From a virus (Duplodnaviria; Heunggongvirae; Uroviricota; Caudoviricetes): 34,316 nt of DNA. Numbering within the stretch: position 1 is the stretch's first letter; each line of letters starts with the position of its first letter. The stretch is from IMG/VR virus record IMGVR_UViG_2737471860_000007; one strand, given 5' to 3'. A program made the translations under genes and the position numbers. A model generated the notes under the pieces. It saw nothing but the letters and a program-made list of their open reading frames with translations, had not been told where the DNA came from and did no database searches. This document shows, one piece after another, positions 1 through 34,316 of the stretch.

Positions 1-128
1 GAAGAAATTGAAACGCCAGCACCATACAAAAAATTCTTATCGATACCGTAGGAAACATTTAGCTCTGGGGCGTTTTCTTTTTTATTATCTGCTAAATACG
101 AAAACCGTTCTTTTATAAATTCATTCAT
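1..128 (-). CDS. Partial CDS (N-terminus only, runs off window start): family-8 LPS core glycosyltransferase, WaaT/WaaJ-like
   Basis: Hand translation of the minus strand from ATG at 128: MNEFIKERFSYLADNKKENAPELNVSYGIDKNFLYGAGVSIS. The YGIDKNFL(Y/F)G-GVSI motif parallels the N-terminus of the adjacent 338-aa GT8 protein. AT-rich like the rest of the waa cluster. Not in the ORF track because it is truncated. Confidence 0.6.
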   Translation of the reverse strand, partial: MNEFIKERFSYLADNKKENAPELNVSYGIDKNFLYGAGVSIS

Positions 129-144
129 TTAACTTTTCTCAATT

Positions 145-1161
145 TCATTTTATTATCTTTAAATAAAAATAATAAATATAATTCATTATCCCGTTAATTG
201 GTTTGTTTTGTTTAAAATTATGCTTGGCGCAATAACGAGCATAGTTTGAGTTAACTGGCCGCATTAACGGTTCATTTTTCCAGGGCGATGCTTCTTTGGC
301 TTTGATAAAAGGTTGCGCACTTGGATAACCGGCCCAGTAATGCCAGGGTTTTGTCGGGCCGACATAATGAATTAATACGGTTTCATCATTAATTGGACAA
401 ACAAATGATTTTTTTAATTCATAATTTAAACTAAATTGCGTATTGTATTTAGCATCAATGAATTTAACTTTCCCTAACAGGATAAGATTAAGGATATCTT
501 GATCCATATAGGTTAAACGGGAAACGATGGCTTTATCAGCAAGCATCGACATCGCTTTAGCAGAAACGGACTCCTGCGCCCACGCTAGTGTATTAATTAA
601 CAGGACACCTGAATTAAAGTAACCCTTTTCAAGTTCATTACACTGCAGACTTTGACCCCGTAACGACCACCAGTTAGCATCGCGTTCAGTAACAACAGCA
701 GCAACGTTATTGGCAAGATCCATTGTTATCAGCGGCTTTAAGTTTCCCTGACAGGCGATATCAGCATCCAGGTAAAGGATCTTATCTTGTTGATCAATAA
801 AGTAATCTGCAATTACAAAACGGAAATACATGGCAATAGACCAATTTTTGGTCGTCGGTAATGCCTTAAGCCGTTCACAATTTACCAGATGGATCTGGAT
901 ACAGGTACGATAGCTTTTCGCCAATTGGGCTAAACGCTGGATATCGGCTTCAGGGATATCATCAATAAAAACGTGGAAAACAAAACTCACGTCGTTGTTA
1001 TGTAACAAAACTGACGTGATTGAAACACCACAACCAAAAAGAAAGTTTTTATCAATGCCATAAGCAACATGGAATGATGATGCCACTGACGCCGCTGGCC
1101 TTTCATCGAAGATGATTGTCTTATTGATCATCTCTTGTGGATTAAAATAGTGGGCACTCAT
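145..1161 (-). CDS. waaO: LPS core alpha-1,3-glycosyltransferase, family GT8 (WaaO/WaaI type)
   Basis: 338-aa ORF with ATG at 1161. GT8 hallmarks in the translation (YGIDKNF N-terminus, DxD-type region YLDADI, HYVGPTKPW near the C-terminus). Sits directly downstream of waaP, as in R1/R3/R4 core types. Confidence 0.85.
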   Translation of the reverse strand: MSAHYFNPQEMINKTIIFDERPAASVASSFHVAYGIDKNFLFGCGVSITSVLLHNNDVSFVFHVFIDDIPEADIQRLAQLAKSYRTCIQIHLVNCERLKALPTTKNWSIAMYFRFVIADYFIDQQDKILYLDADIACQGNLKPLITMDLANNVAAVVTERDANWWSLRGQSLQCNELEKGYFNSGVLLINTLAWAQESVSAKAMSMLADKAIVSRLTYMDQDILNLILLGKVKFIDAKYNTQFSLNYELKKSFVCPINDETVLIHYVGPTKPWHYWAGYPSAQPFIKAKEASPWKNEPLMRPVNSNYARYCAKHNFKQNKPINGIMNYIYYFYLKIIK

Positions 1162-1176
1162 ATTTCTCTCCGGAAA

Positions 1177-1974
1177 TTACAACGATTTTCGAATCGTTCT
1201 TTCCCTGATTTTTGTGGCTTTTGCTTCTGCTTGCGACAGCAGTCCTTGTTCCAGCTTGAGAATGTCTTTAAGCGGGGCGGCAAAATACACTTTCATAAAC
1301 CGCCAGATATCCCGCTGAGTCAGGCCGATATTCATCGAAGAAAAATAAAGCCCAATAAGATCTTTATCGCGCCAACGACGTGGAACGCGCGTGCGAAGCT
1401 GCGCCCGGTGCAGGTCAATTACCGAAATTTTTAACTCCTCTTCCTTACCGGAAAAAGGCAAGTGCAGCAGGAAATGACAGATATAACAGTCACGGTGATT
1501 AATGCCCGCAGCATGCATATCGCGCACCATCGTCGCGACACGCTTAATAAGCATACGCTTTACGCGAACATCTGGTGGGTTGGTCGCCCAGTCAGCACAG
1601 TAATCTTCCAGACTTATGGTTGGTGTCAGATCTTCGGTAATAATAAATGAAGTTCTGGTCAGCGGATTCATGCCTTTTTCGCCAAATGCCACCCCATACA
1701 TAGTATCAACGCCGACATCCCGCAGTCGATGAATCGCATTCCATTCGCGGTCAGCGCCTAATACTGGCATCCGCAATGAGAGTAAATTTTTGATTATCTC
1801 TTTCAGGGTCGTGCCGCGATGCCATTTGAGAAAATAGCTTTTGCCCGCCATTTCAAAGCGCAGAGTACGGCGAGTTTCCAGTTCACGAAATACCTCACCC
1901 TGCAAGGTTTTAACTTCCTCAAAAGGATCTTTGCCGCGCCATAACGTGGCAAACGGCTCTTTAAGTTCAACCAT
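1177..1974 (-). CDS. waaP: LPS core heptose(I) kinase WaaP
   Basis: Translation matches remembered WaaP ([33 protein letters not shown]...). The supplied ORF is extended by 3 codons; trimmed to the conserved ATG. Confidence 0.9.
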
Positions 1975-3091
1975 CCAGACCACCCGTTATGATATCCGCC
2001 GCTTTCTCTGGCAGACTGTATAAATCTTGTGTATCAGCATAATGTCGCGCATTTTCCGCCCAAGCCTGGCGCAATGAAGATTGCGTTAACGCTTTGCGTA
2101 AAATCTCATTCAATGTTTCCTGGCGGAATGGCTCAGCAATAGCCTCGCCGCAATTAGCGTCGACAATATAATGCGCATAGCCACAAACGGCAGTTGTTAG
2201 TACCGGTAATCCTGCAGTAATCGCTTCCAGCAGCACAATTCCCGCCGCTTCCTGGTAGGCAGGATGCAGTAATAAATCCGCCGCCGCCATTAATTCCGAG
2301 ACATCGTTGCGCCCCGAGAAGAAGTGAACATTACTGCGCACGCCGCGTTTTTCTGCCAGTGCCTCAAATTTTCGCGGTTTATCCTGCCCAACAACATATA
2401 GCAATGTGTTGTGGCGCAGCGAATCCGGTAACGAAGCAAGTGCTTCAATGGAACGATCGACACCTTTACGCGTGAAGTCTGAACCGACCTGCAACAATAA
2501 ATATTGTTGTTCGGTTATTCCATTCTTCTTACGGAAGATTTCACGGCTATTGGCTGGCTGCTGGCTATATTTACGATCAGGATAAATCCCCGGTGGCAGA
2601 ATATGAAAACGCTCCGCTTCAGTCTGATAATGTTTCTGGAAATCGGCGATTTGCTTATCTGTCAGCATCAGCAGCTGTGTCGGCTTGCCCTGTTCGAAGG
2701 TTGCCCGCTCAAAGGCGGCATAATGGCGATAACGTGACGTCAGGCGATAGAAAAAGCCTTTTTCCTGCGCTACTTTCTCGGCATAACAAACATCAGCGGC
2801 ATAATAAACGTCCAGCCCCGGCATTTTGTTGAATCCAACGACTTTATCGACGGGATGTTCGCGTAAATGTTTTTGCACCCAGGCAAAATACTCCGCATTG
2901 CGCCCGTGATTGGTATGCGATTTAACCGGCACTTTGATCAGTTCAAATACATCAGGGCATTCGCCTTCCCACGACTGGGTATAAACCCGAACATGATGAC
3001 CTCGGGCGGCGACTGTCTGAGCAATACGCATAAAATCACGCTGCAAACCGCCAAAGGGAAAATATTTATATAAACAAAAAGCAACGATCAT
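1967..3091 (-). CDS. waaG: LPS core glucosyltransferase I WaaG (GT4)
   Basis: 374-aa ORF; translation matches remembered WaaG ([43 protein letters not shown]...). 8-nt overlap with waaP start. Confidence 0.93.
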
Positions 3092-4146
3092 AACGACGTA
3101 CCTGTCGTGGAGGAGGGCAGTAATTTATCGACAGCAGCAATGACATCTGCCGCCGGAATAACCGAAAGATACATCTCATTTCGGTCACGCTGATCGCGCG
3201 TTGGCATTTCCCGGTAATCTCCCGCCCAGAATTGAATCATGTTATTTGACCAGGGACGCCAGAAAATATGGTCTGTCGCACCAAACAGCGATATCAGCGG
3301 CGTATTAACTGCAGCGGCAATATGCGCCGGTGCGGAATCAACGCCAATAAACAGCTGCGCATGATCGATTAACGCACCAAGTTCCGGGAAGGTCACCTTT
3401 CCAGCCAGCGCCGTTACTGGTGGCGTCTGGCATCCCTGCGCAATTTCATTGACGCAGGCCAGATCGTCTTTATCCGGGCCGGACGTCAGAACGACTTCAT
3501 AACCACGAGCATGTAAGGCATCAATCACAGCGGAAAACTTGGCGTTGTCCCAGCATTTGAAGATTTGCCGCGCCGTAGGTTGGATAACCACATAATTTTG
3601 TCCAACACCAGCGTGATCAAGTTCGCGACGCATACGTTTCCAGCTTGCAGGCGGGTAACTCATGGTTGTCTGCTTCACCAACGAATCAAGTCCCAATGGT
3701 GTCAGCACGGATAAGTTACTTTCCACCACATTTCCACCCTGCAACGGCACCAAATGGGTGAAACTTTTACGCCAAAAAGCAGACTGCCGATGATGATAAT
3801 CCTGGGAAATTTTCACACGGGCATTTAATAAGCGAACCAGTATAGCAACCATCCATTGATCGGTAAGATTGACGATAAGGTCATACTTATTGGCACGTAA
3901 TACCTTGATGAGATGAAAAAAGTTGGCAATTTTTTCTGAGGCTTTTGCTTTTTTATTTTTTATGCCGTAGAGCGCGTTAATCTCTGGATTTTCAGACAGG
4001 ATCGGGATGGTGTCCTGATAAAGCAGCACATCGATTTTTGCGTCAGGGTAATTTTTTTTCAGCGAACTAATGACGGGAGTAGTTAATAACATATCCCCAT
4101 GAAAACGCATCTTAATGAGCAAAATTCTTCGAAATGGCTTATCCAC
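3088..4146 (-). CDS. waaQ: LPS core heptosyltransferase III WaaQ (GT9); exact start codon uncertain
   Basis: 352-aa ORF with the heptosyltransferase N-terminal RILLIK..GDMLLTTPV pattern. 4-nt ATGA overlap with waaG. First gene of the waaQ operon, divergent from waaA. Confidence 0.88.
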   Translation of the reverse strand: MDKPFRRILLIKMRFHGDMLLTTPVISSLKKNYPDAKIDVLLYQDTIPILSENPEINALYGIKNKKAKASEKIANFFHLIKVLRANKYDLIVNLTDQWMVAILVRLLNARVKISQDYHHRQSAFWRKSFTHLVPLQGGNVVESNLSVLTPLGLDSLVKQTTMSYPPASWKRMRRELDHAGVGQNYVVIQPTARQIFKCWDNAKFSAVIDALHARGYEVVLTSGPDKDDLACVNEIAQGCQTPPVTALAGKVTFPELGALIDHAQLFIGVDSAPAHIAAAVNTPLISLFGATDHIFWRPWSNNMIQFWAGDYREMPTRDQRDRNEMYLSVIPAADVIAAVDKLLPSSTTGTSL

Positions 4147-4195
4147 AAGTAACTCTTTTTGTTGAGATTATCCGATTAAGGTGAAGCAGAAAAAG

Positions 4196-4207
4196 CACGC
4201 TACCGCC
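4196..4207 (-). promoter_or_regulatory. ops element (RfaH recruitment site) within the JUMPstart sequence of the waaQ operon leader
   Basis: Plus strand reads cacgctaccgcc; its reverse complement is GGCGGTAGCGTG, the ops consensus. Located about 50 nt upstream of the waaQ start on the transcribed strand. Confidence 0.65.
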
Positions 4208-4559
4208 CCAGGCTCAACAGCTACCTGAATACTGATACCGCACTGATATTGACGCGCTAGTGTATCACTTCTTTCGCGGCAATCCGACCCGAATGATTTT
4301 TAAGCACATTGTTGATTTTTCAATAAAGAAATCAATCAAATAAAATCATTAGCAACCATATTCTTTCACTGTTGCTCTGCGATTCCTTCCTGCACGTACA
4401 GCAGAAATCAATGAATCGCATAAAAATACAAAAAAAGTATAGATGTTCAGCAAGAATTGGCGGGTAAATTGCTATTTAAGTCAAAAACGGGAAAAGTAAT
4501 GGTAAAGCCACAGCTAAATACATAGAATCCCCAGCACATCCATAAGTCAGCTATTTACT

Positions 4560-6324
<1,765 letters not shown>

Positions 6325-21232: not shown

Positions 21233-23314
21233 ATGAAAGGTCGCCTGTTAGATGCTGTCCCACTCAGTTCCCTAACGGGCGTTGGCGCAGCACTTAGTAA
21301 CAAACTGGCGAAAATCAACCTGCATACCGTGCAGGATCTACTCTTACACCTTCCCCTGCGCTACGAAGATCGCACCCATCTCTACCCCATCGGAGAACTA
21401 CTGCCGGGCGTTTATGCCACGGTGGAAGGCGAAGTGCTGAACTGCAATATCTCCTTCGGCGGTCGGCGGATGATGACCTGCCAGATCAGCGACGGTTCCG
21501 GCATCCTCACCATGCGCTTTTTCAATTTCAGCGCGGCAATGAAAAATAGCCTGGCGACGGGCCGCCGTGTACTGGCTTATGGCGAAGCAAAGCGCGGTAA
21601 ATATGGTGCGGAGATGATCCACCCGGAATACCGCGTGCAGGGCGATCTCAGCACGCCAGAATTACAGGAAACGCTCACGCCGGTTTATCCAACAACGGAA
21701 GGCGTAAAGCAGGCCACGCTGCGTAAATTAACCGACCAGGCGCTGGATCTGCTCGACACCTGCGCCATTGAAGAACTCCTGCCGCCGGAACTGTCACAAG
21801 GAATGATGACGCTACCGGAAGCGTTGCGCACTTTGCACCGCCCGCCACCGACGCTACAGCTTAGCGATCTGGAAACCGGGCAGCATCCGGCGCAACGTCG
21901 TCTGATTCTGGAAGAACTGCTGGCGCACAACCTCAGCATGTTAGCCTTACGTGCCGGAGCACAGCGTTTTCATGCCCAGCCGCTGAGCGCCAATGACACG
22001 CTGAAAAATAAACTCCTCGCCGCCTTACCGTTCAAGCCAACGGGCGCACAGGCACGCGTAGTGGCGGAGATCGAGCGCGATATGGCGCTGGATGTGCCGA
22101 TGATGCGTCTGGTGCAGGGCGATGTAGGTTCCGGTAAAACGCTGGTCGCCGCCCTCGCCGCGTTGCGTGCGATTGCCCACGGCAAACAGGTAGCATTGAT
22201 GGCACCAACCGAATTACTCGCCGAGCAGCACGCCAATAACTTCCGCAACTGGTTTGCACCGCTCGGTATCGAAGTGGGCTGGCTCGCCGGTAAGCAGAAA
22301 GGTAAAGCACGGCTGGCACAGCAGGAAGCCATCGCCAGCGGTCAGGTGCAGATGATTGTCGGTACACACGCCATCTTCCAGGAACAGGTGCAGTTTAACG
22401 GCCTGGCGCTGGTGATTATCGACGAACAGCATCGTTTTGGCGTGCATCAGCGTCTGGCATTGTGGGAGAAAGGCCAGCAGCAGGGCTTCCATCCGCATCA
22501 GTTGATCATGACCGCCACGCCGATCCCCCGCACGCTGGCAATGACTGCGTATGCCGATCTCGATACCTCGGTGATAGATGAGCTGCCGCCAGGCCGCACG
22601 CCAGTGACTACGGTCGCTATTCCTGATACCCGCCGTACCGACATCATTGACCGCGTGCGCCACGCCTGCATAACTGAAGGTCGTCAGGCATACTGGGTTT
22701 GTACGTTGATTGAAGAGTCGGAATTGCTGGAAGCGCAGGCGGCGGAAGCTACCTGGGAAGAGTTGAAACTGGCGCTACCAGAGTTGAACGTTGGCCTGGT
22801 ACACGGGCGGATGAAACCTGTCGAGAAACAGGCGGTGATGGCGTCGTTTAAACAAGGTGAGCTACACCTGCTGGTTGCCACAACCGTTATTGAAGTCGGC
22901 GTTGATGTGCCTAACGCCAGTCTGATGATTATCGAAAACCCGGAGCGTCTGGGTCTGGCGCAGTTACACCAGCTTCGCGGGCGTGTAGGTCGTGGTGCGG
23001 TGGCTTCTCACTGCGTGCTGCTCTACAAAACGCCGCTCTCCAAAACCGCGCAAATTCGGCTGCAAGTGCTGCGCGACAGCAACGACGGTTTTGTGATTGC
23101 ACAGAAAGACTTAGAGATTCGCGGACCGGGTGAACTGTTAGGTACGCGTCAGACGGGTAATGCTGAGTTTAAAGTGGCGGATTTACTGCGCGATCAGGCG
23201 ATGATCCCGGAAGTTCAGCGCCTGGCGCGACATATTCACGAACGTTACCCACAACAAGCAAAAGCCCTGATAGAACGCTGGATGCCGGAGACGGAACGTT
23301 ACTCCAACGCATGA
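21233..23314 (+). CDS. recG: ATP-dependent DNA helicase RecG
   Basis: ATG at 21233 gives 693 aa MKGRLLDAVPLSSLTGVGAALSNKLAKINLHTVQDLLLHLPLRYEDRT...; Walker A GDVGSGKT and DEQH box present. The supplied ORF is extended 11 codons. Confidence 0.95.
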   Translation: MKGRLLDAVPLSSLTGVGAALSNKLAKINLHTVQDLLLHLPLRYEDRTHLYPIGELLPGVYATVEGEVLNCNISFGGRRMMTCQISDGSGILTMRFFNFSAAMKNSLATGRRVLAYGEAKRGKYGAEMIHPEYRVQGDLSTPELQETLTPVYPTTEGVKQATLRKLTDQALDLLDTCAIEELLPPELSQGMMTLPEALRTLHRPPPTLQLSDLETGQHPAQRRLILEELLAHNLSMLALRAGAQRFHAQPLSANDTLKNKLLAALPFKPTGAQARVVAEIERDMALDVPMMRLVQGDVGSGKTLVAALAALRAIAHGKQVALMAPTELLAEQHANNFRNWFAPLGIEVGWLAGKQKGKARLAQQEAIASGQVQMIVGTHAIFQEQVQFNGLALVIIDEQHRFGVHQRLALWEKGQQQGFHPHQLIMTATPIPRTLAMTAYADLDTSVIDELPPGRTPVTTVAIPDTRRTDIIDRVRHACITEGRQAYWVCTLIEESELLEAQAAEATWEELKLALPELNVGLVHGRMKPVEKQAVMASFKQGELHLLVATTVIEVGVDVPNASLMIIENPERLGLAQLHQLRGRVGRGAVASHCVLLYKTPLSKTAQIRLQVLRDSNDGFVIAQKDLEIRGPGELLGTRQTGNAEFKVADLLRDQAMIPEVQRLARHIHERYPQQAKALIERWMPETERYSNA

Positions 23315-24165
23315 CCAGACTCATCACAAGACAAGTCACGCAGTAAATCTTCAATCTGGATAGTGAGGATATCCATTGCCTCATACGCATCCTGTGCAAT
23401 TCGCGCCGCCATTGCGCCTTCCGGTTCACCACGCAGAATTTCAGCCGCTGCCTGTACGCCAGCCACAATCATTTCAGGTGTTAACATTTGGCGAAGAAAA
23501 GCGCGATTATCAGAGGACCAGCCATCTTTATGGCCTAATGGATGCCCCCAGCCTATCCATTCTTGCGACCATAACGGATTGGCTTCTATGGGATAAATTA
23601 GATGCGCGGCATACTGAATAGCACACACCGCTTTTCCTGGCGTATCCAGCGCCCACCAGCGCGACCAGAGAGAATGAATTAACGGCGCGGCCCCACCCAG
23701 AGTATTGAACACCGCCAGCCAGCAAAGAACGTTATTGAAACCACGCTCGTTATCCATACGCTGCAACGCGGTGTCCAGTAAAAATTGCCGTACCTGCTGG
23801 CGTTGGGAAGCATTCATCATCTCCTGCCAGAGATAGGGCCGACACAATGCCTTCATTAAGGATTCTTCGAAGTGATCACCATAACCGCCAGCTAAAACGG
23901 TTTCATGCCATTGCGCCAGGCAGAGCGGAAACAGATAGCGAAACAACTCTATTTGCATCGGTTCGTTATAAACGAGATTGAGTACATAGTAAGCACTCAA
24001 ATCCCATACGCTGATCTGCTGCCACTCTTTAGCCGCCAGCGCCTTGAGTTCGGCATCTGCGTAATCAAATTCCGTTTCCCATACACAGAGCACTGGCGGC
24101 TCATCACCAAAAATATGGCGACAGTGTTCACGTAGCGTTTCCGGTTCCTTCCGACGCTTTTTCAT
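23299..24165 (-). CDS. Hypothetical protein (288 aa), unknown function; Trp-rich, predicted soluble
   Basis: ATG at 24165 lies 2 nt after the gltS stop codon (24168-24170) on the same strand, suggesting translational coupling. Its 3' end overlaps the recG 3' end by 16 nt in antisense. 14 Trp in 288 aa; no obvious hydrophobic transmembrane stretch or signal peptide. Codon usage is broadly E. coli-like with some rare codons (ATA, CTA, CGG, CGA). No recognisable motif from memory. Confidence 0.6.
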   Translation of the reverse strand: MKKRRKEPETLREHCRHIFGDEPPVLCVWETEFDYADAELKALAAKEWQQISVWDLSAYYVLNLVYNEPMQIELFRYLFPLCLAQWHETVLAGGYGDHFEESLMKALCRPYLWQEMMNASQRQQVRQFLLDTALQRMDNERGFNNVLCWLAVFNTLGGAAPLIHSLWSRWWALDTPGKAVCAIQYAAHLIYPIEANPLWSQEWIGWGHPLGHKDGWSSDNRAFLRQMLTPEMIVAGVQAAAEILRGEPEGAMAARIAQDAYEAMDILTIQIEDLLRDLSCDESGHALE

Positions 24166-32929: not shown

Positions 32930-33024
32930 GGAAGATCGTCGTCTCCGGTGAGGCGGCTGGACTTCAAATCCAGTTGGGGCCGCCAGCGGTCCCGGGCAGG
33001 TTCGACTCCTGTGATCTTCCGCCA
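32930..33024 (+). tRNA. selC: tRNA-Sec (selenocysteine, UCA anticodon)
   Basis: 95-nt sequence GGAAGATCGTCGTCTCCGGTGAGGCGGCTGGACTTCAAATCCAGTTGGGGCCGCCAGCGGTCCCGGGCAGGTTCGACTCCTGTGATCTTCCGCCA matches remembered E. coli selC, including the long variable arm and CCA end. A TATAAT hexamer lies at 32893-32898 upstream. Confidence 0.93.
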
Positions 33025-34316
33025 AACTTCATCCAGCCAGTTCCGAGACACTCCATAAAACCCTTTATATTCAATATGATGAATAATCATCTTATCCGTA
33101 ATAGTCCGAGAACGTCTCCCTGAATCCGCGAAAAATATGTATAGTAATGTGTATAGAATTTTTATACGCAGTTTTCAGTTATACATATGGCTCTAACCGA
33201 TATACAAATCAAACGCGCAAAACCACAAGACAAACCATATACATTGAATGATGGGCAAGGTCTGTCATTGCTTATCAATCCCGATGGCTCGAAAGGATGG
33301 CGTTTCCGTTTCCGGTTTGCAGGGAAAGCGCGGTTAATGTCATTTGGTAGTTACGACCTTGTAAGCCTCGCGGAAGCACGTGAGAAACGCGATACGGCTC
33401 GTAAGCAGGTAGCAAACGGCATAGACCCAGTTGAAGAACGTAAAGCCCAAAAGCTGGCACAGAAACTCTCAACAGAGAACTCATTCGAAGCCATATGTAG
33501 AGAATGGCACACTAACAAAGCGGATCGCTGGACAGTGGCCTACCGCGAAGAAATCATTAAAACATTTGAACAAGATGTATTCCCATTCATTGGTAAACGC
33601 CCTATAAGTGAAATCAAACCGTTAGAACTGCTTGAAGTATTGCGACGAATAGAGAAACGTGGAGCACTAGAGAAGACCAGAAAAGTGCGGCAAAGATGCG
33701 GGGAGGTCTATCGCTATGCGATCATAACTGGTCGCGCTGAATACAATCCAGCGCCTGATTTGGCTATCGCTCTGGCCGTTCCTAAGCAAGAACACCATCC
33801 TTTTTTATCTGCTGAAGAGTTACCTCATTTTATTCGGGACCTTGAAGCGTATACCGGTAGCCTTATCACCAAAAATGCTACAAAGATAGTCATGTTAACT
33901 GGTGTAAGAACACAGGAGATGCGATTTGCTACGTGGGAAGAGATTGACCTTGAGAAAGGTATATGGGAGATCCCCGCTGAACGGATGAAAATGCGTAGGC
34001 CTCATATTGTTCCTTTATCCGCTCAGGTAGTTGATCTCTTTAAACAGCTCAAGCCTATCACCTATAATTACCCATACATTTTTATTGGCAGAAACAACCG
34101 TAGCAAACCGATTTCGAAAGAAAGTGTGTCACAAGTAATTGAGTTACTTGGTTATAAAGGACGAGCTACTGGCCATGGTTTTAGACATACAATGTCGACT
34201 ATTTTACATGAGCAAGGATACGATAGTAAATGGATTGAATTACAGCTTGCACATGTAGATAAAAATTCGATACGTGGTATTTATAACCATGCGCAAGGTA
34301 GTGACTCCAACTTACT
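33025..34316 (+). mobile_element. Left end of a selC-inserted genomic island (integrase module); extent beyond window unknown
   Basis: An integrase gene in the same orientation starts 162 bp 3' of the tRNA. In the K-12 arrangement, as I recall it, selC is followed by setC/yicL instead. selC is a well-known island insertion hotspot. Confidence 0.6.
33187..34316 (+). CDS. int: Partial CDS (C-terminus beyond window): P4-family tyrosine integrase adjacent to selC
   Basis: Hand translation from ATG 33187: MALTDIQIKRAKPQDKPYTLNDGQGLSLLINPDGSKGWRFRFRFAGKARLMSFGSYDLVSLAEAREKRDTARKQVANGIDPVEE... through ...TGVRTQEMRFATWEEIDL...GRATGHGFRHTMSTILHEQGY...LQLAHVDKNSIRGIYNHAQG. Has the N-terminal arm-binding domain typical of P4-like integrases, the conserved Arg box and the H-x-x-R box. 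Open to the window end, so absent from the ORF track. AT-rich compared with flanking core genes. Confidence 0.85.
   Translation, partial: MALTDIQIKRAKPQDKPYTLNDGQGLSLLINPDGSKGWRFRFRFAGKARLMSFGSYDLVSLAEAREKRDTARKQVANGIDPVEERKAQKLAQKLSTENSFEAICREWHTNKADRWTVAYREEIIKTFEQDVFPFIGKRPISEIKPLELLEVLRRIEKRGALEKTRKVRQRCGEVYRYAIITGRAEYNPAPDLAIALAVPKQEHHPFLSAEELPHFIRDLEAYTGSLITKNATKIVMLTGVRTQEMRFATWEEIDLEKGIWEIPAERMKMRRPHIVPLSAQVVDLFKQLKPITYNYPYIFIGRNNRSKPISKESVSQVIELLGYKGRATGHGFRHTMSTILHEQGYDSKWIELQLAHVDKNSIRGIYNHAQGSDSNL

Follow-up and report, generated by a model that had tools for sequence, protein, structure and literature searches.

Which lipopolysaccharide (LPS) core type does a host carry when only the beginning of its outer-core gene cluster is in view? 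Core type predicts the O-antigen ligase and its attachment site, the LPS-binding phages that adsorb, and the anti-core antibodies that react. The question is raised by a 34,316-nt stretch of DNA (hereafter the window), at whose left end (positions 1–1161, the flagged region) a gene for a 338-aa family 8 glycosyltransferase (GT8) directly follows waaP and is itself followed by the start of a second GT8 gene. A sequence-only reading had described this layout, which is indeed present, as a non-K-12 order of the kind found in R1, R3, and R4 cores and, together with an island at selC, as a hint of a possibly pathogenic lineage. Here we ask to which core type the layout belongs and whether it bears on pathotype.

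Gene order, protein identities, and leader

The open reading frame (ORF) list and the sequence place waaQ, waaG, waaP, the 338-aa GT8 gene (145–1161), and the second GT8 start (128–1) in this order on the minus strand. The operon opens with waaQ (3088–4146, minus strand), which encodes heptosyltransferase III (NF007742, 714 bits), and waaG (1967–3091, minus strand) encodes the GT4 glucosyltransferase I. The identity of both is supported by ORFs, Pfam or NCBIfam profile matches, and identity to annotated genomes. The LPS core heptose(I) kinase gene waaP (1177–1974, minus strand) encodes a product that matches the Pfam Kdo/WaaP family (1.5e-75) and NF011703 (480 bits) and is 100% identical to WP_001315906.1. 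Its ATG start gives a protein of 265 aa; the mechanical ORF, which begins at a GTG at position 1983, gives 268 aa.

A spacer of 15 nt separates the waaP stop (1177) from the start (1161) of the 338-aa GT8 gene, waaO (145–1161, minus strand), and waaS and waaB are absent from this gap, so that waaO lies directly downstream of waaP, as in the R1/R4 family. The second GT8 gene, waaT, also follows the R1/R4 pattern, with its ATG at position 128, 16 nt past the waaO stop. Its first 42 codons plus 2 nt are visible (1–128, minus strand) before the window start truncates it, and all 42 residues are identical to the N-terminus of WP_001001720.1, an annotated 331-aa GT8 (WaaT). The fragment also matches the N-terminus of the GT8 model NF011718 weakly (5e-08) and is too short for Pfam. 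Within the 16-nt waaO-waaT spacer (129–144, minus strand; G+C 0.188), a purine-rich GAGAAAAG stretch could be the ribosome-binding site of waaT. On the plus strand, the ORF list contains no ORF of at least 40 aa that starts within 1–1134, and the sole plus-strand ORF reaching the flagged region has its start at 1135, from where it extends antisense into waaP. A tblastn search of the whole 34-kb window found no homologue of WaaS, WaaB, WaaY, WaaZ, WaaU, WaaV, WaaX, or WaaL.

The 338-aa protein is a retaining glycosyltransferase of the GT8 family. It matches the entire Pfam Glyco_transf_8 profile (PF01501; positions 1–253 of 253, 6.8e-81, 272 bits against a cutoff of 24.3), the GT8 C-terminal domain Glyco_transf_8C (PF08437; 3.5e-24, 85 bits), and the NCBIfam WaaO/WaaI equivalog NF011718 (612 bits, cutoff 461), and it is identical to RefSeq WP_001272734.1 at 338 of 338 positions. 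In keeping with GT8 membership, the LgtC residues D103-I-D105 and H244, which bind the metal and nucleotide-sugar in the 1GA8 structure, have their aligned counterparts in D132-A-D134 and H265. Judged from these aligned residues, the DxD/His metal-binding motif is intact. Among the outer-core references, the protein is 100% identical to the WaaO of R1 and R4, 52.1% identical to R3 WaaI, and 50.7% identical to K-12 WaaO, and identity to the WaaJ, WaaT, and WaaW paralogues falls to 34–38%.

These alignments and the gene order bear directly on the other core types. In the MG1655 annotation the cluster reads waaQ-G-P-S-B-O-J-Y-Z-U, in agreement with the sequence-only reading, according to which K-12 places waaS and waaB between waaP and its GT8 genes. 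The K-12/R2 core type, marked by waaS and waaB between waaP and waaO, is excluded, since neither gene lies there; nor do they occur elsewhere in the window, and K-12 WaaO is far from being the best match. The description of the layout as non-K-12 is therefore upheld.

The R3 type (waaQGP-waaI-waaY-waaJ-waaD), which the same reading had allowed, likewise places a GT8 gene straight after waaP. In an O157:H7 genome (R3), however, the order is waaP-waaI-waaY-waaJ followed by a GlcNAc transferase gene, whereas in the window the gene that starts at 128 is a second GT8 and not waaY. The 52.1% identity to WaaI, the 100% match of the 42-aa fragment to WaaT, and the absence of R3 primer sites from related loci in silico also argue against R3, and its probability is negligible. 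Of the organization proposed for R1, R3, and R4, the R1 and R4 parts thus stand, on gene order and WaaO/WaaT identity, and the R3 part falls.

The automatic annotation of these proteins calls for separate comment. PGAP, through NCBIfam NF011718, labels every WaaO/WaaI as “lipopolysaccharide 3-alpha-galactosyltransferase”, K-12 derivatives included, in conflict with the curated name of MG1655 WaaO, UDP-glucose:(glucosyl)LPS alpha-1,3-glucosyltransferase. A WaaI-like galactose transferase, as the automatic name would have it, was considered and rejected, because K-12 WaaO, a curated glucosyltransferase, bears the same name. The donor sugar in that name is therefore unreliable for the WaaO of R1, R4, and K-12.

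The two GT8 genes had also been singled out as far more AT-rich than their neighbors, and base composition bears this out. G+C is 0.328 in positions 1–128 and 0.382 in waaO, compared with 0.475 in waaP, 0.482 in waaG, 0.470 in waaQ, 0.544 in waaA, and 0.51 in the window as a whole. Low G+C and exchange by homologous recombination have been described for the variable region of waa (PMC8715443), and low G+C as seen here is well known from the variable central block of waa loci. This block passes from one lineage to another by homologous recombination, for which conserved waaQGP and waaC/F on either side serve as flanks.

Upstream of waaQ, its leader contains a JUMPstart element (4196–4234, minus strand; Rfam RF01707, 55.2 bits against a gathering score of 35, E 6e-11), the sole RNA element found by an Rfam scan of positions 1–6000. 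A pattern search located the ops motif, GGCGGTAG, at 4200–4207. From established pathway knowledge, we infer that the ops/JUMPstart element is an RfaH loading site, which would allow transcription to extend into the AT-rich genes further along the operon. Near position 4320, between waaQ and waaA, strains 504838 and MEI2BO-21 differ from the window in length by 1 nt, and strain 13P460A does not.

In the proposed pathway, transcription would begin ahead of waaQ, and RfaH that has been recruited at ops would keep RNA polymerase moving through the AT-rich genes at the distal end. WaaG would place glucose I onto heptose II, WaaO would add glucose II in alpha-1,3 linkage, from UDP-glucose, onto glucose I of the outer core, and WaaT would add galactose I in alpha-1,2 linkage onto glucose II of the outer core, as in R1/R4 strains. 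Galactose II would be added next by WaaW, and in R1 strains WaaV would attach a beta-glucose side branch, to which WaaL would ligate the O-antigen. The functions of WaaO, WaaT, WaaW, and WaaV have been described in an R1 strain (PMC12548472), and the donor sugars given here are derived from the literature.

R1 versus R4

Both R1 and R4 loci carry waaP-waaO-waaT, so the junction itself cannot separate the two types. The published typing scheme splits them by waaV versus waaX alone (LPSTyper); in silico, a product of 842 bp from primers R1-F/R1R4-R denotes R1 and a product of 380 bp from R4-F/R1R4-R denotes R4. In silico, no LPSTyper primer site lies in the window. As the window stops short of waaV or waaX and of the matching waaL, the R1 call is one of linkage rather than of direct observation.

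The linkage is close. Many complete E. coli genomes match positions 1–1990 with 100% identity, and in these the genes are annotated as waaG, rfaP, waaO, and “glycosyltransferase family 8 protein”. In strain 504838, the cluster continues as waaQ-waaG-rfaP-waaO-GT8-rfaY-(alpha-1,2-galactosyltransferase)-GT2-(O-antigen ligase), which corresponds to the R1 arrangement, waaQGPOTYWV plus waaL. The window aligns collinearly over its whole length with strain 13P460A (3 mismatches in 34,296 nt), and this strain contains a full R1 cluster, waaO-waaT-waaY-waaW-waaV (GT2)-waaL. Over positions 1–25000, identity reaches 100% in more than 35 genomes. Three of these, ECOR29, FWSEC0010 (O113:H21), and GE3, all contain waaV and an R1 waaL by direct inspection, and these three and 13P460A all yield the 842-bp R1 product in silico. 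FWSEC0010 and GE3 are given as R1, phylogroup B1, in their entries of the LPSTyper supplement (Trofimova 2025). Strains KKa014 and S42 combine the window haplotype with full-length matches to the R1 distal block. Every haplotype-sharing genome checked (13P460A, ECOR29, FWSEC0010, GE3, KKa014, and S42) is R1.

An R4 locus, in which waaQGPOTYW is followed by waaX (a GT25 beta-1,4-galactosyltransferase) and an R4 waaL, would look very similar from within the flagged region. The R4 strain MEI2BO-21, in which a GT25 replaces the GT2, encodes WaaO as WP_001272734.1 and WaaT as WP_001001720.1, exactly as R1 does, and R4 genomes differ from the window by merely 1–7 SNPs within 1–1161. In approximately 700 of 2,528 genomes with the distal waaT-Y-W block, the waaV-waaL part typical of R1 is missing, and the published frequency of R4 is 12.3% (Trofimova 2025). 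Over positions 1–4146, however, five R4 genomes lie 20–54 SNPs from the window, compared with 0–7 for R1 genomes, and R4 reference loci give the 380-bp product in silico. Each haplotype-matching genome checked is R1, and the matching genomes belong to phylogroup B1, where R1 and R3 account for ~92% of strains. An R4 source is accordingly improbable.

The locus could also be atypical just past the edge, with waaT broken by an insertion sequence, as in the truncated rough core of E. coli B, or with an R1/R4 hybrid arrangement. Only 128 nt of waaT are visible before the window edge truncates it, and at its other end the window stops 20 nt into an IS1-like terminal repeat, which indicates that the source genome contains IS1; in BL21-type strains an IS1 lies in waaT, and an R1/R4 hybrid has been described in ECOR46 (PMC13293308). 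Against this, bases 1–128 are 100% waaT with no foreign sequence at the left edge, the BL21 insertion lies ~500 nt into waaT and not at 128, and such arrangements are rare, LPSTyper having typed 99% of genomes as standard types. We regard an atypical locus as very improbable.

The BL21 lineage is itself informative about how far gene order can be trusted. E. coli Nico21(DE3), of this lineage (L009, 5621–7392), encodes the same WaaO protein, and its waaT is split by IS1A ~500 nt in. This split of waaT is the known cause of the truncated E. coli B core. With waaT broken in Nico21(DE3), an R1-type gene order is no guarantee of a complete R1 core.

Taken together, the flagged region is best read as genes four and five of the waaQ operon, waaO in full and waaT at its 5′ end, from a locus of the R1/R4 family. 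By linkage to R1-defining genes that lie outside the window, the source locus is most probably R1, to which we assign a probability of about 0.9.

Frequency, pathotype, and the selC end

The window segment 1–1161 is common. Among 5,426 complete E. coli genomes, 2,525 (46.5%) contain it at an identity of at least 95%; 1,832 of these carriers contain the full R1 distal block and ~700 contain waaT-Y-W alone, consistent with R4. These counts agree with the published frequencies of 35.4% for R1 and 12.3% for R4 (Trofimova 2025). The genomes identical over 25 kb come from kangaroo rat (an ECOR strain), soil, pavement, chicken, pig, cattle, human, and faecal sources, and they mix commensal, environmental, STEC, and ETEC isolates. 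At the level of DNA sequence, the flagged region is identical to sequences in hundreds of strains, both harmless and pathogenic.

The sequence-only reading had suggested that core type and the selC island together mark a pathogenic lineage. An integrase does adjoin selC, and selC is a classic insertion site of pathogenicity islands. In addition, R1 dominates in ExPEC, NMEC, APEC, and ETEC (Trofimova 2025). R1 is, however, also the commonest core type in commensals (36.9%), and core type is weakly tied to pathogroups, with the exception of EHEC with R3 (Trofimova 2025). Isolates that share the 25-kb haplotype without a mismatch range from commensal and environmental to pathogenic ones, and the selC island of the nearest genome is a P4-like satellite, followed by setC-yicL as in K-12. 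The proposal is therefore not borne out, and we consider it unlikely. As R1 is the commonest type in commensals as well, a pathogenic lineage cannot be inferred from the segment: the waaP-waaO-waaT junction carries no pathotype information. The practical lesson is that this junction neither separates R1 from R4 nor informs on pathotype.

At the right end of the window, selC (tRNA-Sec) lies at 32930–33024, and the adjacent gene encodes a P4-type tyrosine integrase with Arm-DNA-bind_3, Phage_int_M, and Phage_integrase domains, extending from 33187 to an IS1 junction (34296/34297). The integrase allele is rare, with a match of at least 99% in only 11 of 5,426 complete genomes. In 13P460A, the nearest genome, the integrase heads a P4-like satellite of ~14 kb that contains a TrlF-family AAA ATPase, psu, ogr/delta, an icd-like gene, and a primase that ISEc12 interrupts; no virulence genes were found in this selC satellite. 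The last 20 nt of the window, 34297–34316 (GGTAGTGACTCCAACTTACT), differ from the sequence of all genomes that have the remainder of the integrase gene in common with the window, and GGTAGTGACTCCAACTTACT matches the IS1A terminal inverted repeat at 18 of 20 positions, beginning exactly at the end of the IS. It thus appears that an IS1-family element has broken the integrase gene next to selC ~52 nt short of its stop, and the window end may be a contig break due to the IS1 repeat.

Elsewhere in the window, a 288-aa ORF (23299–24165, minus strand) occupies the space between gltS and recG, reaching into the 3′ end of the latter. It corresponds to a RefSeq hypothetical protein found in ~1,911 of 5,426 genomes, and it has no Pfam matches. 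To our knowledge, K-12 has no gene at this site.

Comparison with known loci

In order to place the visible genes among known systems, the structural archetype of GT8 provides the distant end of the comparison. Neisseria meningitidis LgtC (PDB 1G9R/1GA8) belongs to the same GT-A fold family as WaaO. The alignment spans residues 32–277 (E 1e-18), and the DxD and His residues are conserved, although the relationship is distant. Unlike the window protein, LgtC transfers alpha-1,4-Gal onto lipooligosaccharide, and it does not contain the PF08437 C-terminal domain seen in Waa enzymes.

Among the E. coli loci, K-12 (and R2) keep the waaQ-G-P block, with a WaaP 84.5% identical to that of the window. 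The WaaO orthologue likewise adds glucose in alpha-1,3 linkage but is only 50.7% identical; waaS and waaB stand between waaP and waaO, and the next GT8 is WaaJ/R rather than WaaT. The R3 locus of O157:H7 resembles the window in that a GT8 gene, waaI, directly follows waaP, and its WaaP is 99.2% identical. It differs in having the kinase gene waaY after waaI, where the window has the second GT8, and in a WaaI that is 52% identical and transfers galactose, not glucose.

The R4 locus (waaQGPOTYWX plus waaL) is closer still, sharing the gene order through waaW and, in some strains, identical WaaO and WaaT proteins; where R1 has the GT2 gene waaV, it carries the GT25 gene waaX, and its waaL is different. 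No other layout is as common in the species as that of R1, descriptions of which date back to the late 1990s. The feature analyzed here is a textbook outer-core junction of the R1/R4 family, very probably R1, and is already known. With waaY, waaW, waaV, and waaL lying outside the window, the R1 locus (13P460A, ECOR29, FWSEC0010, GE3, and 504838) shows the same waaQ-G-P-O-T order, the same spacers, the same JUMPstart leader, and the same low G+C; its DNA is 100% identical over the flagged region, the likeness continues through the 25–34 kb flank (3 SNPs in 13P460A), and the visible part of the cluster shows no differences.
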